A stretch of 12,079 nt of DNA from a virus: the UHGV virus genome UHGV-0141735; one strand, written 5' to 3'. Positions 50 through 12,079 of the stretch are shown piece by piece. Under the pieces are notes generated by a model, which worked only from the letters and a program-made list of their open reading frames with translations, was not told the origin of the DNA and searched no databases. How positions within the stretch are numbered: the stretch's first letter is position 1; every line of letters begins with the position of its first letter. A program made the position numbers and the translations under genes.

Positions 50-1285
50 TTACGTGTGCAGTGTATGTTCGATTTTTTGATGTTTGAATAACCGATCAAC
101 CAATAATTCAAGTTTGTGAAAATCTGTAAGAGGATATAGCTTCACGATGTCTTCCTCAAAATTCGCTATACCTGATAATTTTTCTTTTTTTCGTAAGTAA
201 TCGATGGCAATTCTTTGTTCATTCGATATCTCAAACTGATTTTGATAATCTAAGGTTTTAAGTACTTGCCAAGACATAGGGGCTGTAAATTCGAAGTAAG
301 AAGCTAGTTTTGGACAAAAATCATATTGAATAGATTGCTTATAGGTTGCTTTAGGTGGTAATACAACATTAACAGAATATTTACTGCTCCTAGAATTCGG
401 CATTTTTGTAGAGTAATATGCTATCCCCGCTATTGGTGATTTAACCCGACGACCGATCCACTGCATTAATAAATTTGGGATTATATATTCAGGTGTGAAT
501 GATGAATTTTCTACGCGTTTTAAATAATTGCAAGCGATTAGTAATGGCCAGAATATCAAGTATGATGCTTTTGTTCTGTTTTCATCATATATTTTATTTT
601 CATCAACAGTTTTTTTAATTGGAAGTGAAAGGTGAGGAGAAGCAAAATTTAAAATTGTTGAATTTACATCGTTTGTAACGAAGGATGATATATATAATTT
701 ATCAAAATCTGGCTTTCCCATCTCTTGCCAACATACGTACAAGGATGTACCGAGATATAAGCAGGGTTGGCCTGCGACTGAATATCTTTGAGCATTCACT
801 AAATGTCTTTTTGAAAACGGAATATGAAATATTTGGTTGTGCTCAATCAAAGGGGTTTCTGATTTTCTGACCCGATAAAGTGGCTTTTCCTTATTGCAAA
901 AATCTTTTAGCAAGATACTAATTCGATTTAGTTGGGCTATTGTTGCCTCCTTTGACATAATGTCATCGAAAATGTCATATGCTTTTTTAATATCTCCAGA
1001 CAAAAACTCCTCTAGAGTTTTTTGTATGCACTTATGAATATTTGCAACTCGTCCTTTTAGAACTCTAAGTTCCCTACCGCATCCATTCATGTCTGCTTTT
1101 ATTGATTCATCAATTAAAGTCATATAAATTTTACATCGATTAGAAAAATCACTGGCTATATCGCCTTTAATGTTGAATGGTGGATTTAATTCTTCATGGC
1201 TCAATAGTCGCTCAAGAAAGTGATCAATCCAGAGTGCATTTTTCTTTTCTGATTCTAATTGAGTACTGGATTTTTTTTCGTCCAT
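50..1285 (-). CDS. Hypothetical AT-rich cargo protein (411 aa) with a central RES-like (Arg-Glu-Ser, NAD+-targeting toxin-type) region; function unproven
   Basis: Intact 411-codon ORF. Its ATG (1283-1285 on the minus strand) lies 4 nt downstream of the int stop, same orientation. Sample 60-nt lines count about 27-30% GC by hand, against about 60% in a gpA line. Motifs LYRVRK, then QRYSVAGQPCLYLGTSLYVCWQE, then AYYSTK...SVNVVLPP resemble the RES-domain core pattern (R ... G.P.LY.s.s...A..E ... S). Pattern-level only. Confidence 0.6.
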   Translation of the reverse strand: MDEKKSSTQLESEKKNALWIDHFLERLLSHEELNPPFNIKGDIASDFSNRCKIYMTLIDESIKADMNGCGRELRVLKGRVANIHKCIQKTLEEFLSGDIKKAYDIFDDIMSKEATIAQLNRISILLKDFCNKEKPLYRVRKSETPLIEHNQIFHIPFSKRHLVNAQRYSVAGQPCLYLGTSLYVCWQEMGKPDFDKLYISSFVTNDVNSTILNFASPHLSLPIKKTVDENKIYDENRTKASYLIFWPLLIACNYLKRVENSSFTPEYIIPNLLMQWIGRRVKSPIAGIAYYSTKMPNSRSSKYSVNVVLPPKATYKQSIQYDFCPKLASYFEFTAPMSWQVLKTLDYQNQFEISNEQRIAIDYLRKKEKLSGIANFEEDIVKLYPLTDFHKLELLVDRLFKHQKIEHTLHT

Positions 1286-1289
1286 GTTT

Positions 1290-2306
1290 TCACTCTATAT
1301 AGTTTAAAGGATTTTTAGTTACCGCATCCTCCAGATGATCTGGAGAAAAGTGCGCATAAATCATGGTCATTTTTATATCGGCATGGCCTAAAATTTCTTT
1401 AAGCACAAGTATGTTTCCTCCGTTCATCATAAAATGGCTGGCGAATGTATGACGTAATACATGGGTGCATTGACCCTCAGGAAGCTCAATATCGGCCCGC
1501 TTTACTGCACGCTCAAAGGCTTTTCTGCATGGTGAGAATAACTTCCCTCGATTTTTAGGAAGTTCGTTGTACAGATCCTGAGATATTGGCACGGTACGGT
1601 TTTTCTTGCCCTTCGTCTTGGTATAAGTGATGCGGTATTTGGATAATTGATGGCCCTGCAGATTTTCTGCTTCACTCCACCGTGCGCCAGTAGCTAGGCA
1701 TATTTTTGCAATCATTAGTAAGCTAGGGCTTTGAGATTCAGCACATGCCGCCAACAGGCGCTTGATTTCGTCCGTGGAAAGAAAAGCCAGCTCACCTTCG
1801 GCAATTTTGAAGGTCGGAAGTCCTGCCAGCGGGTTTGGTGCTGACCAGTGTCCTAGTTTTTTTAATGTACCGAACACCGATGATAGATTGCGCTGTTCAA
1901 GGTTTACCGTGCGGGGCTTAACGGGCGACATAAGCGTGCCATCTTCATTTCGTATTTCACCTTTTAACCGTGCTTCGCGGTATTTCGTAAAGTCTCCGGC
2001 TGTCAGTTCTGAGGCGATGGGGTCGCCTAGGCCATTACAGATAATTCTAAGTTTCGCCATGAGGCGCTTGGGGTCTGCGAGTGTCTGACCATACAGGGAA
2101 TACCAAAGCTCAATTAATTCTGATAGGCGTCGCCGATCATCCTTTTCACCCAACCACGGTTTTTTATTCACTTCTTCCATTGTGAAGCTTTCAAACGCAA
2201 TGGCTTCGCCTTTCGTGGCAAATTGCTTACGCACGCGCTTGCCATTGCGTCCATTGGGATAGCACTCGCACAACCATTTTCCGTTCGGCTGTTTTCTGAT
2301 GGTCAT
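1290..2306 (-). CDS. int: Tyrosine recombinase / phage integrase, P2/186 Int family
   Basis: 338 aa. C-terminal catalytic signature HVLRHTFASHFMMNGGNILVLKEILGHADIKMTMIYAHF (HxxR ... Y nucleophile), an upstream TGARWSEA box, and N-terminal GRNGKRVRKQF...AFE typical of P2-type Int. Its start is 1 nt from the repressor stop, the C-int operon layout. Confidence 0.95.
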   Translation of the reverse strand: MTIRKQPNGKWLCECYPNGRNGKRVRKQFATKGEAIAFESFTMEEVNKKPWLGEKDDRRRLSELIELWYSLYGQTLADPKRLMAKLRIICNGLGDPIASELTAGDFTKYREARLKGEIRNEDGTLMSPVKPRTVNLEQRNLSSVFGTLKKLGHWSAPNPLAGLPTFKIAEGELAFLSTDEIKRLLAACAESQSPSLLMIAKICLATGARWSEAENLQGHQLSKYRITYTKTKGKKNRTVPISQDLYNELPKNRGKLFSPCRKAFERAVKRADIELPEGQCTHVLRHTFASHFMMNGGNILVLKEILGHADIKMTMIYAHFSPDHLEDAVTKNPLNYIE

Positions 2307-2307
2307 A

Positions 2308-2940
2308 TCAAAGGCTCTTAATGATTTTCAGTGCGCGGCCTACTACCTCAATGTCATCCAGACCGCACTCAAACGATGAATCATCCTGATGCACTACTAA
2401 TTTGTTTCCCGGGAGTCGTGTCAATTTAACAATGCTTTTTATCCCGTCGATGTCCACTAACCACATACCATTTACTGGTGGTGTTTGGTTGCGATCTATT
2501 AAATAAGAATCACCAGAAGTAGTCACCAGCAGCAGGTTGCTTGAATCTGAGGGGAGTATGCTGCTATCAATGATTGCTTTTCCCGCATCGATCAATAAAC
2601 CACCGTTGAGAGTCGCCTTGTCAATTTCAGGAGATACTAGTTCAGAAAGAGGTACAACCTTGCTGGAGTTCACGGAATTGATATTTTTTTTAGGTTCAAT
2701 GTTTGGACCTGGCTCCCCCTGTCCGGTGGTTAGCCACAGTAAAGAAACTCCTGTTTCCAAGGCGCACTGAATCACCCACTCTGCAGGAAAACTATCTCTT
2801 AAGTATCTGTTTGCCATGGTGCTTTTTGATGCGCCTAAGTGATCGCAAAGTTGCTGTCTGGACTTGAAATCATAGGCTGCCATTAGTCTATGGATAGCCT
2901 CTCTTCCCCCTGTATTCTCTCCAACCTTTACCTGTATCAT
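2308..2940 (-). CDS. cI: Phage CI-type immunity repressor (N-terminal HTH, C-terminal oligomerisation/regulatory domain)
   Basis: 210 aa. Transcribed leftward from the early control region directly into int. N-terminus (RLMAAYDFKSRQQLCDHLGASKSTMANRYLR) looks like a phage CI-repressor HTH. The position matches 186 cI / P2 C. Confidence 0.8.
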   Translation of the reverse strand: MIQVKVGENTGGREAIHRLMAAYDFKSRQQLCDHLGASKSTMANRYLRDSFPAEWVIQCALETGVSLLWLTTGQGEPGPNIEPKKNINSVNSSKVVPLSELVSPEIDKATLNGGLLIDAGKAIIDSSILPSDSSNLLLVTTSGDSYLIDRNQTPPVNGMWLVDIDGIKSIVKLTRLPGNKLVVHQDDSSFECGLDDIEVVGRALKIIKSL

Positions 2941-9088: not shown

Positions 9089-9277
9089 ATGCAGGACTAT
9101 TTTTTGGAGTCTTTGAAGCTCCAGCGCATTGATTTTTTTCTTAAGCTTGTAGCGGCTAGTGAGTGTAGTGATGAAGAGAAGGGGCTGGCTCTGCAGTGGG
9201 TTTCTGAATTGACTGATGAACTCATGGCAAAAATCAGAACCCACGAATACAACCGCTCAATGGATGTCATCAGCTGA
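9089..9277 (+). CDS. Small hypothetical protein (62 aa), first gene of the SOS-controlled module
   Basis: ATG 9089 with AGGAGG 4-5 nt upstream, downstream of the LexA box. The longer 8987 start would place the LexA box inside the coding region, so the short form is preferred. Confidence 0.4.
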   Translation: MQDYFLESLKLQRIDFFLKLVAASECSDEEKGLALQWVSELTDELMAKIRTHEYNRSMDVIS

Positions 9278-9287
9278 GGTGACTTTT

Positions 9288-9521
9288 ATGCGCATTGAAA
9301 TAATGATCGATAAAGAGCAGAAGATTAGCCAGTCTACCCTAGACGCCCTTGAATCCGAGCTTTACCGCAATCTGCGCCCCCTGTATCCCAAAACGGTAAT
9401 TCGCATTCGCAAAGGTAGCTCTAACGGTGTGGAACTAACCGGACTGCAACTGGACGAAGAAAGAAAACAAGTGATGAAAATTATGCAGAAGGTGTGGGAA
9501 GACGACAGCTGGCTGCATTAA
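9288..9521 (+). CDS. DinI-family protein (186 Tum-like SOS-inducible module)
   Basis: 77 aa, MRIEIMIDKEQ...LDALESELYRNL...KIMQKVWEDDSWLH, collinear with E. coli DinI (MRIEVTIAK...ILQETWESADDWF). GAGGTG RBS 6 nt upstream. Confidence 0.85.
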   Translation: MRIEIMIDKEQKISQSTLDALESELYRNLRPLYPKTVIRIRKGSSNGVELTGLQLDEERKQVMKIMQKVWEDDSWLH

Positions 9522-9854: not shown

Positions 9855-10553
9855 ATGGTTATGTTAGTGGATGACTGTCCACGATGTGGATCACAAAAAA
9901 TAGCGTTTGATGTTAATGGGCTGAATTGCACTAGGGTTTACAATGCATTGGGCGGGGGTAAAACATACGAGTACGAGGTCTATTGTGTTTGCCGAGAGTG
10001 TCATAAAACGACAATGTTTCTTTGCAGACCTTTAACGAAAAATAAAAATTTAGATGGCTATAATTGGGAAAGTGGAATATTCGGCTTAAAGGAAGTTGCA
10101 GAGGTTGTTAGGCCTATATCACCGGCAGACTTAGCAGTAGAGGAGCCACCAGAGTTCTTACCTGAGCATATCAATAGTGCATATGAGGAAGGGGCGAAAT
10201 GTTTGGCTATAGGTTGTTATAATGCAGCAGCAACCATGTTTAGGCTTTGCCTTGATTATGCCACAAAAGGACTTCTTCCTGATGGGGAGCAAGGGCCTGC
10301 GCAAAAAATAAGGAGAAGCCTAGGGTTAAGAATGGAGTGGTTATTTGATAATCATCTACTGCCTGAAGCTTTAAGGGAACTAGCTGAATGCGTTAAAGAT
10401 GACGGAAATGATGGAGCGCATGAAGGTATTTTGGATAAAGCTGCTGCTGAGGATCTTGAAGATTTTACCTATCTTTTTTTAGAACGGCTTTACACTGAAC
10501 CTCAACGCCTTATCGAAGCCAAGACAAGGCGTGAACAAAGAAGAAACAAATAA
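9855..10553 (+). CDS. AT-rich cargo protein (232 aa): N-terminal four-Cys zinc ribbon plus acidic all-alpha C-terminal domain; unknown function, defence candidate
   Basis: Strong RBS AGGGAGGAG 8 nt upstream of ATG 9855 and an AT-rich upstream region. CPRCG...CVCRECH zinc ribbon. C-terminal LRELAECVKDDGNDGAHEG motif. Sits between the cos-like site and the portal stop (8-bp gap), convergent with the portal fragment. Confidence 0.75.
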   Translation: MVMLVDDCPRCGSQKIAFDVNGLNCTRVYNALGGGKTYEYEVYCVCRECHKTTMFLCRPLTKNKNLDGYNWESGIFGLKEVAEVVRPISPADLAVEEPPEFLPEHINSAYEEGAKCLAIGCYNAAATMFRLCLDYATKGLLPDGEQGPAQKIRRSLGLRMEWLFDNHLLPEALRELAECVKDDGNDGAHEGILDKAAAEDLEDFTYLFLERLYTEPQRLIEAKTRREQRRNK

Positions 10554-10561
10554 GTTCGGAA

Positions 10562-11200
10562 TTATTCTTCTGAAAGAATATAGGGCGTAAATTTAATCAC
10601 TTCTTCGCCCAGCCAGTCGTTCAGCTCTTGTAGCCTTTTTTGCAAGGGCGTTAATTCATTACGTACAAATACGCGACTGGCCTTCTCCACATCCCCAAAC
10701 CCTCCAACATTATTAGGCATAATCCCCATCATTTGCGGCGGCACGCGGTGCGCAGCCATCATGTCGTCGCGGCTGACATTTTTGATATTCAAAAACTCAT
10801 CCTTCGCCGCGACTTCTGACAATGGGATGATCTGAAGCCCGTCTTTTTTGCCGTTAGGCGAGTACATAAACAGGTTGCGGAAGTTGCCTGGACCTTTGGC
10901 GCTTTTCATCGCATTGCGGAGGTTGTTCACATCCTCCTGGTTTTGCGCGGCATCGGTCATGTACATGATAAAGCCCGCATGACTGCCGTTAATGTAATAC
11001 TTGCGACGGAACAGCGTGGCGGACTCGTTGAGCAGGGCTGACGGAATGGCAGAAAGATAACCGGGCAGGCCGTAGATCTCCTGATTAATATCCGGTTCCA
11101 TCAGATGAAAAATGCTGCCTTTCGTGAACTGATACGGCTGGGTTGTCATACCGTATTGCACAAACCAGTAGGTAACGGTTTTACGACCAGTATTGAACTT
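10562..11200 (-). pseudogene. Q: 5'-truncated portal gene (P2 gpQ family), C-terminal roughly 210 codons retained
   Basis: From about TGRKTVTYWFVQ to the C-terminus (DMMAAHRVPPQMMGIMPNNVGGFGDVEKASRVFVRNELTPLQKRLQELNDWLGEEV) the translation reads as a portal protein. The ORF's N-terminal 45 residues are low-complexity and overlap the ogr start, so the upstream boundary (about 11200) is approximate. Confidence 0.65.
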
Positions 11201-11301
11201 GAAGTGAAAATTGGTGATCTTGAAATGGAATAAATGGTTCTCAATATTGATATTTTGTGTATCATTGCAATGATTCTGATAGCAAAGGTAGGGATCTGGA
11301 T

Positions 11302-11520
11302 ATGATGAATTGTCCAAAGTGTGGTCATGCGGCGCACACAAGGAGCAGTTTTCAAGTAACAGAAAGCACCAAAGAGCGTTACTGCCAGTGCCAAAATATT
11401 AACTGCGGGAGCACTTTTGTTACCCATGAAACAGTGGTCCGGTTTATTGTGACACCTGCAGTGATTGCCACAGCCCCTCCACATCCATTGCCAGGTGGTC
11501 AGGGCCATATGAATTTTTAA
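11302..11520 (+). CDS. ogr: Ogr/Delta-family zinc-finger late-gene transcriptional activator
   Basis: MMNCPKCGHAAHTRSS...KERYCQCQNINCGSTFVTHETVVRFIV...PHPLPGGQ is collinear with P2 Ogr (CxxC-x22-CxC-x4-C). Start at ATG 11302 preferred over the longer 11257 ORF. Confidence 0.9.
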   Translation: MMNCPKCGHAAHTRSSFQVTESTKERYCQCQNINCGSTFVTHETVVRFIVTPAVIATAPPHPLPGGQGHMNF

Positions 11521-11527
11521 GAAAGAG

Positions 11528-11549
11528 AACCTGCTACGGCAGGTTTTTA
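11528..11549 (+). terminator. Hairpin plus T-tract after ogr (AACCTGC-TACG-GCAGGTT-TTTTA)
   Basis: 7-bp stem, 4-nt loop, followed by TTTTTA. The stop of the convergent minus-strand gene lies in the T-tract. Confidence 0.45.
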
Positions 11550-12029
11550 TTCATCTGGGATCTCACCCGTTTCAAGAAAATGTATAAAGCCAGGCTCATC
11601 TATGATGATAGTGCCTTTCATCCTGGCTGCCGATACTTTTGATGGGCCTGCATTGTAACCGCAACAGAGCATCTGAAGGTTTTGGGTTACAGATGTTCTT
11701 ACCGTTAATCCTTGTTCATTCGCCTTATCAACCAACCTTTCTTTATCTGCTTTCTTAAATCCGGTGAAACACACATCGAATGTATTTTTTTTCGGACCTG
11801 ACTGCTTAGTGAGATGTGAGTAGTTTTCGGGGAGGAATGACGCGCATTCCTGAATGGCTTGTTCTTGTGAATCGTATTGTTTAAGAATGCGGTCTTTTCG
11901 GAAGGTTTTTATTCGATCGGTGTTCTTACAAATGCCCTGTATGTGATTTTCGCTATAACTGATGCTCTGTATTGAGTGAACACCGATACGACCATTTGCA
12001 TTGATGTAAACAAAGTGAAGTTCTTCCAT
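11547..12029 (-). CDS. Small BRCT-domain protein (160 aa) with a beta-rich N-terminal domain; unknown function
   Basis: Good SD (AAGAGG) upstream of ATG. C-terminal VCFTGFKKADKERLVDKANEQGLTVRTSVTQNLQMLCCGYNAGPSKVSAARMKGTIIIDEPGFIHFLETGE fits the BRCT pattern (hydrophobic-TG start, central G-G/S-K, C-terminal hydrophobic acidic end). AT-rich relative to the prophage core. Confidence 0.65.
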   Translation of the reverse strand: MEELHFVYINANGRIGVHSIQSISYSENHIQGICKNTDRIKTFRKDRILKQYDSQEQAIQECASFLPENYSHLTKQSGPKKNTFDVCFTGFKKADKERLVDKANEQGLTVRTSVTQNLQMLCCGYNAGPSKVSAARMKGTIIIDEPGFIHFLETGEIPDE

Positions 12030-12079
12030 GTCAAACCTCTTTGCATGATTTCAAGATGGCGACAGGCAAGATGGACGCA

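Follow-up and report, generated by a model that had tools for sequence, protein, structure and literature searches.

The gene at positions 11547–12029 (minus strand) of the window, that is, of the whole 12,079-nucleotide stretch of viral DNA analysed (UHGV-0141735), encodes a minimal WYL-BRCT protein without an HTH or enzyme domain. It is a conserved lysogeny-module gene, and in most genera it is located right after the repressor gene. By analogy with the systems discussed below, its product may act as a DNA-end- and ssDNA-binding exclusion or defence factor of the lysogeny module, a reading that is put forward tentatively and at somewhat less than even probability. The gene and its surroundings contain the following features.

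11547–12029, minus strand: WYL-BRCT coding sequence of 160 aa from the ORF list, with an ATG start and the stop codon at 11547–11549
12036–12040, minus strand: Shine-Dalgarno sequence AGAGG, 6 nt 5' of the ATG, read from the sequence
11302–11520, plus strand: ogr, the late-gene activator and convergent neighbour, annotated as an ogr/Delta-like zinc finger in identical E. coli DNA
11528–11545, no strand assigned: hairpin terminator common to the convergent ogr and WYL-BRCT genes, a terminator-like site mapped to the window from 14346–14329 of locus L001

The 160-aa protein matched phrog_2561 over its full length (E 2.5e-77) and was 100% identical to gp32 of Escherichia phage Cartapus, and its AF2 model had a mean pLDDT of 92. 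The GC content of the gene was 41.0%, compared with 45.8% for the window. When the gene was compared with its orthologues from Citrobacter, Klebsiella, and Plesiomonas, dN was approximately 0.2 and dS was saturated; dN/dS was 0.07 where it was computable. It is apparent that the ORF at 11547–12029 is real, intact, and under purifying selection. A preliminary description, made from the sequence of the window, had assigned to this gene a good Shine-Dalgarno sequence, which is the AGAGG given above, an N-terminal beta-rich domain of about 50 aa, and a C-terminal BRCT domain. The protein is divided as follows.

11811–12029, minus strand: WYL domain (residues 1–52) and two helices (residues 55–73); a five-stranded Sm-like barrel with conserved Y8 and T42-F-R-K-D-R-I48
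11778–11810, minus strand: flexible, poorly conserved linker (residues 74–84), with a pLDDT of 69 in the block 71–80 and with length and sequence varying in the family alignment
11568–11777, minus strand: BRCT domain of the LigA/RFC1 class (residues 85–154), in which T89, G90, and K131 are invariant and K96 is nearly so
11550–11576, minus strand: conserved acidic C-terminal tail L-E-T-G-E-I-P-D-E (residues 152–160), with T154 and G155 nearly invariant

Pfam BRCT (PF00533) scored 19.9 bits on the window protein alone, against a gathering score of 21.3. Among the 58 aligned relatives, 40 matched BRCT at E<=0.01; relatives reached E values down to 7.5e-21, and a precomputed PF00533 match was present on one family member. 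When the family profile was compared with solved structures, the BRCT domains of RFC1 and LigA were found (E 6e-5 to 9e-5). The window protein has the beta-alpha-beta-beta-alpha-beta-alpha fold of BRCT, and a BFVD structure search returned ligase BRCT domains and unnamed phage look-alikes and nothing else. The BRCT assignment is marginal from the single sequence and solid from the family profile and the fold, by which the C-terminal BRCT domain of the preliminary description was borne out. T89, G90, and K131 were invariant in the 58 sequences and aligned with the TG and GxxK of RFC1, and K96 aligned with an RFC1 arginine. The residues of the BRCT phosphate pocket are thus kept, both the S/T-G of the beta1-alpha1 loop and the lysine of alpha2.

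The beta-rich N-terminal domain is also present as described, but its identity had been missed: it is a WYL domain. The closest folds to the five-stranded Sm-like barrel were known WYL structures. Pfam WYL (PF13280) gave no match on the window protein itself, and the PADLOC WYL model matched it with an E value of 0.027. In relatives, Pfam WYL scored 34.9 and 27.5 bits against a gathering score of 21.8; 23 of the 44 extended relatives matched, and a precomputed WYL match was present on P0099. When the N-terminal domain was compared by itself with PDB in a profile search, no match was significant (TubZ ranked first, E 0.24), and the match of the domain to the C-terminal "FRIDRIL" of 8bnv was suggestive and non-significant. 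Because the PDB profile search gave nothing significant, the WYL assignment is based on the fold and on the Pfam matches of the relatives. The barrel begins at residue 3, and the BRCT domain stands where WCX would be. R44 and R47 of the FRKDRI motif are conserved, and the ssDNA contacts of CapW are S144, R164, R168, and R184, the equivalences being by motif only. The strand that matches RWHVR of CapW, again by motif only, reads H-I-Q-G-I here and is without the flanking arginines. At the other end of the protein, a TGE-hydrophobic-P motif was found in 84 of the 150 family representatives, and from this conservation we infer that the ETGEIPDE tail is a candidate partner-binding motif.

The family is large. 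There were 122 homologous clusters at 90% identity, and an exhaustive profile search of representative clusters gave 2550 at E<=1e-3, 883 at E<=1e-10 (these being clusters at 50% identity), and 205 at E<=1e-30. Among the 150 best representatives, 87 resembled the window protein in being short and soluble, and the other 63 were longer. No Pfam domain and no HTH or effector fusion was found in the N-terminal extensions of the relatives, and hydropathy revealed TM-like hydrophobic segments in 38 of 44 N-extended relatives. Membrane anchors were present in 45 of the 150 representatives (about 30%), three C-terminal extensions were hydrophobic anchors, and the TM-anchored variants, including that at locus L050, take the same position behind the repressor. 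Three relatives (P0176, P0193, and P0130) carry additional WYL and/or BRCT repeats. A conserved C-terminal domain of about 220 aa follows WYL-BRCT in P0130, P0156, P0171, P0177, and P0188; it is phrog_36782-like, carries the motifs LPRR..LIA.F..GYAAGW.FAV and WTQGH.F.F, and had no Pfam match. A literature search found no study of the WYL-BRCT family or of WP_000391796; the combination of WYL and BRCT had received one passing mention in a listing (Makarova et al. 2014).

In order to place the gene in the phage, the window was compared with E. coli prophages and with packaged phage genomes. Three further features are needed here.

1290–2306, minus strand: integrase (Pfam Int_N and Phage_integrase)
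2308–2940, minus strand: CI repressor (Pfam Phage_CI_repr and Phage_CI_C)
12056–12065, no strand assigned: innermost copy of the repeat ATGGCGACAG, a probable integrase arm-type site in the P' arm of attP, mapped from locus L001

Positions 11173–12079 of the window were 100% identical to intact P2-like prophages located at ssrA in E. coli, in which the order is D, ogr, the WYL-BRCT gene, ssrA, and smpB. Comparison with the packaged Cartapus genome demonstrated that the phage DNA begins 45 nt inside the 3' end of ssrA, and this segment is the att core. The core is followed by a replacement ssrA terminator supplied by the phage (12-bp stem, L001 14918–14945) and then by about 85 nt containing TGGCG(A/G)CA repeats, which are also present on the other side of the core. 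In Cartapus, 4 matches to TGGCG(A/G)CA were found on both arms compared with 0.72 expected, and none of 200 shuffles reached 4; in locus L070 (4717–4745 and 4923–4974), a tandem pair per arm flanks the 45-nt ssrA-derived core. The window ends within the P' arm, 50 nt upstream of the ATG of the WYL-BRCT gene, and the inverted partner of the ATGGCGACAG copy lies just past this end. Besides the tandem pairs, an inverted copy of TGGCG(A/G)CA makes a 10-bp perfect inverted repeat in the leader of the WYL-BRCT gene. From their arrangement, the repeats are probably integrase arm-type sites, and they could tie Int binding to WYL-BRCT expression.

The WYL-BRCT gene is the outermost phage gene, since only the attP arm, the ssrA terminator, and ssrA lie beyond it, and it abuts ssrA in 166 of the approximately 182 E. 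coli genomes that carry it. The preliminary description had correctly placed the gene at the ogr-proximal edge of a mobile element, where it is the last gene before attP, and had treated it as a prophage gene. Its presence in packaged P2-like phage genomes agrees with this, and a housekeeping gene outside attR was rejected because the att core lies beyond the gene. Any partner gene had been placed past the window end, where Int arm-type repeats, the att core, the ssrA terminator, and ssrA were found instead. A partner to the right was rejected, as ssrA and smpB follow, and the cargo on the far, upstream side of attP was discarded as a partner since it varies from phage to phage.

In packaged, circular E. 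coli phage DNA, the order on one strand is CI, int, variable cargo, attP (a 288-bp gap), and the WYL-BRCT gene, so that the gene is preceded on its own strand by the lysogeny operon of CI and integrase (1290–2940, minus strand). Given the gene order of Cartapus, the WYL-BRCT gene is downstream of the lysogenic transcription unit as long as attP is intact. In the lysogen, the host tmRNA gene ends in phage DNA, since the prophage brings its own strong ssrA terminator; read-through of this terminator would enter the WYL-BRCT gene. In E. coli ET734 (L075 1–5400), ssrA is occupied by a tandem of two P2-like prophages, which recreates the phage-like order ogr, WYL-BRCT gene, att, cargo, int, and CI; the WYL-BRCT copy in this tandem is annotated as frameshifted.

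The gene was present in 28 of 50,697 phage records, all from Peduoviridae wherever a family was given, and P2 and 186 were not among them. In E. coli, 182 of 5426 genomes carried the gene, compared with 1352 that carried a related prophage backbone. The gene is accessory, not core. Its neighbourhood was compared in 63 genome loci. The ogr-convergent arrangement was repeated in close Enterobacteriaceae relatives. In Yersinia, Xenorhabdus, Providencia, Hafnia, Brenneria, Aeromonas, Vibrio, Mannheimia, and others, the gene is directly 3' of the repressor on the same strand, mostly with gaps of <60 nt and in some cases with overlaps, and the integrase usually comes next, either directly or after variable cargo. 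The 44 same-strand upstream neighbours included 15 that matched Phage_CI_repr, 14 HTH_3, and 7 Peptidase_S24. Repressor seeds with documented Pfam content were matched by at least 23 of the 44 (10 P2-type, 6 S24-type, and 7 other HTH). Independent contig look-ups revealed a repressor immediately upstream in seven of eight cases, with one exception. The downstream genes were variable and often defence-like (KAP NTPase, TIR/SEFIR, AbiTii, and Mrr). The preliminary description had called the att-side edge of the element a typical place for cargo; the gene is not arbitrary cargo of this kind, and belongs as a conserved gene to the lysogeny module, adjacent to the repressor in most genera.

The window itself is a remnant prophage, in which (10562–11233) a junction at 11173 fuses the C-terminal ~200 codons of the portal gene Q, on the minus strand, with the final 61 nt of the tail gene D. 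Some 20 kb of late genes are accordingly absent, and the junction was present in no complete E. coli genome of the collection. The remnant retains the immunity region, int, A, cargo genes, ogr, and the WYL-BRCT gene. Immediately behind int lies an ORF of 411 aa (50–1285, minus strand; only 33% GC), which had no Pfam or PADLOC match and is likely to be an uncharacterised defence gene. It fills the variable cargo slot between int and att, where Cartapus has a RES-like protein and other E. coli have genes annotated as dCTP deaminase, DUF262, or dsDNA nuclease. A 232-aa DUF4145 protein (9855–10553, plus strand) in the A-to-Q (tin/old) cargo slot matched PADLOC PD-T7-4 (E 1.2e-6). Downstream of the replication gene A, a DinI-like ORF (9216–9521, plus strand; PF06183, E 1.3e-22) resembles the Tum antirepressor of 186 in position and domain, and this resemblance suggests SOS-linked induction of the phage type in the window.

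By analogy with proteins that share its domains, the window protein would most likely be a non-enzymatic DNA-binding protein protecting the lysogen. The WYL domains of CapW and DriD bind ssDNA (PMC11662680), and the WYL barrel of the window protein would bind single-stranded nucleic acid like those of CapW, DriD, and PafBC. BRCT domains of the RFC1/LigA class bind nicked or 5'-phosphorylated DNA, and the RFC1 BRCT on its own binds to recessed 5'-P DNA at ~10 nM (PMC9293004); a BRCT domain of this class with an intact T-G...K pocket would be predicted to bind 5'-phosphorylated DNA ends or nicks. Together, the two domains would recognise ss/ds junctions, cohesive ends, or nicked circles of foreign DNA that is entering or replicating. 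The protein would occupy such sites and thereby compete with the LigA of the host, to which it is similar in its BRCT. Alternatively to the occupation of sites, a host factor may be recruited via the conserved ETGEIPDE tail. The result for the lysogen would be superinfection exclusion or defence, and the TM-anchored relatives may act likewise where the DNA enters. The known Sie proteins are encoded in lysogeny modules, are small, and associate with the membrane (PMC7693887). A defence role for WYL-BRCT, which the preliminary description had put up for testing, is a plausible candidate.

Several observations count against the exclusion reading. The sole defence-model match of the window protein was PDC-S48, through the BRCT part. 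Its pI is about 7 and that of the BRCT part about 5.3, which is atypical of a strong DNA binder, and the protein is soluble, with a maximum KD hydropathy of 0.59 and without a hydrophobic segment. The stretch from the ssrA terminator of the phage to the ATG of the gene was found to have no sigma-70 consensus promoter. Some family members are found in non-prophage chromosomal contexts. Finally, the ligand of the WYL domain may differ from that of CapW, since WCX, which completes the ssDNA crevice of CapW, is missing, as are, by motif, the flanking arginines.

The close coupling of the gene to repressor genes would also fit the main rival reading, a sensor of DNA damage or ssDNA that tunes the lysogenic switch of its own phage. 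Its WYL domain would sense ssDNA, and the protein would then tune prophage induction or stabilise lysogeny via the co-encoded repressor or via RecA/RecFOR loading at 5' gap junctions. A possible parallel is lambda RexA, whose gene is transcribed together with cI and which has been reported to affect the CI-Cro switch. Such a role is nevertheless unlikely. The protein has no HTH or other sequence-specific DNA-binding domain, and the membrane anchoring of about 30% of the representatives would be awkward for a component of the switch. Furthermore, the gene co-occurs with S24 self-cleaving repressors, which already sense RecA*, the phage in the window already has the DinI/Tum-like ORF, and int, cargo, and attP stand between CI and the gene in the E. 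coli clade.

Because the gene adjoins int, or lies in the P' arm of attP among the probable Int arm sites, and because its BRCT domain is closest to the LigA/RFC1 class, a helper of the phage's own DNA was considered. The protein might assist integration or excision at attP, or might protect or seal cos ends and nicks by recruiting or mimicking LigA. This is improbable, since the gene is dispensable for the phage type, being present in only 28 of 50,697 phage records, P2 and 186 not included, and in 182 E. coli genomes against 1352 with a related backbone. In addition, tyrosine recombinases require no ligase, the cos ends of lambda and P2 are joined before phage genes are expressed, and TM anchoring is unfit for an attP cofactor.

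WYL regulators are found beside diverse defence systems (PMC9122601), and in many loci KAP NTPase, TIR/SEFIR, AbiTii, or Mrr genes lie immediately downstream of the WYL-BRCT gene. The protein might thus be a sensor or regulator of variable downstream defence cargo, as CapW and BrxR are with diverse defence systems. We consider this very improbable: the protein has no HTH, the integrase comes next without cargo in several loci, and in the window and all close E. coli relatives nothing follows the gene, since it is convergent with ogr.

A role as DNA ligase or exonuclease, as named in the RefSeq phage records and PHROGs ("DNA ligase" for phrog_2561, NC_049342, and NC_008201; "putative exonuclease" for Cartapus), has practically no chance of being correct and was ruled out by domain content, the database labels being wrong: only the BRCT part, the last ~80–100 positions, of the LigA model TIGR00575 (547–650 of 652; 20.9 bits against a cut-off of 444) and of the DEDDh exonuclease model PRK06063 (229–307 of 331; 26.4 bits against a cut-off of 389) was matched, the adenylation, OB, Zn-finger, and HhH domains of LigA and the DEDD exonuclease domain are absent from the protein, and WYL and BRCT fill the 160 aa and leave no space for an adenylation, OB, or DEDD domain.

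For the family as a whole, it is conceivable, although rather doubtful, that WYL-BRCT proteins are widespread, unrecognised, repressor-linked prophage factors that read ssDNA and 5'-phosphate ends or nicks without a catalytic domain. They would either capture the ends of incoming phage or plasmid DNA, with the anchored forms doing so at the membrane, or couple damage sensing to the lysogenic switch independently of RecA/LexA. The family is large and is misannotated as ligase or exonuclease, and it adjoins the repressor, a highly informative position in temperate phages. If WYL-BRCT is an exclusion or defence factor, its mechanism would be built from damage-sensor and DNA-end-binding domains without an enzymatic effector; if it is a modulator of the switch, it would provide P2-like and other phages with an ssDNA-sensing input apart from SOS. 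Both readings are directly testable in E. coli with Cartapus by simple genetics.

Among known proteins, the window protein belongs to the family represented by phrog_2561 and by the NCBI "BRCT domain-containing protein" WP_000391796.1, and its domain content does not support the "DNA ligase" label of the former. The last ~70 of the 411 positions of the PADLOC candidate PDC-S48 matched the C-terminal BRCT domain (E 1.7e-7); PDC-S48 is a computational candidate that shares only BRCT with the window protein, the remainder of the model being unmatched. Unlike the wHTH-WYL-WCX regulators CapW, BrxR, PafBC, and DriD, the window protein has neither wHTH nor WCX and carries a fused BRCT domain instead, and therefore it cannot be a classical transcription factor. 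By motif, the ssDNA-contacting arginines around the WYL-motif strand of CapW do not appear to be conserved in the WYL-BRCT family. The BRCT domains of LigA and RFC1 gave the best sequence-profile matches and have the same fold, and their T-G...K pocket positions are kept in WYL-BRCT; in contrast to them, the BRCT domain of WYL-BRCT is detached from a catalytic or clamp-loader module, is net acidic, and bears the family-specific tail ETGEIPDE. Sie2009 of lactococcal phages has a hydrophobic N-terminal anchor, as do many WYL-BRCT relatives but not the soluble window protein. Although Sie2009 and lambda rexAB have no sequence or fold kinship with WYL-BRCT, they are alike in position, and Sie2009 also in topology, being encoded at the same place in the lysogeny module, co-oriented with the repressor gene and next to it.
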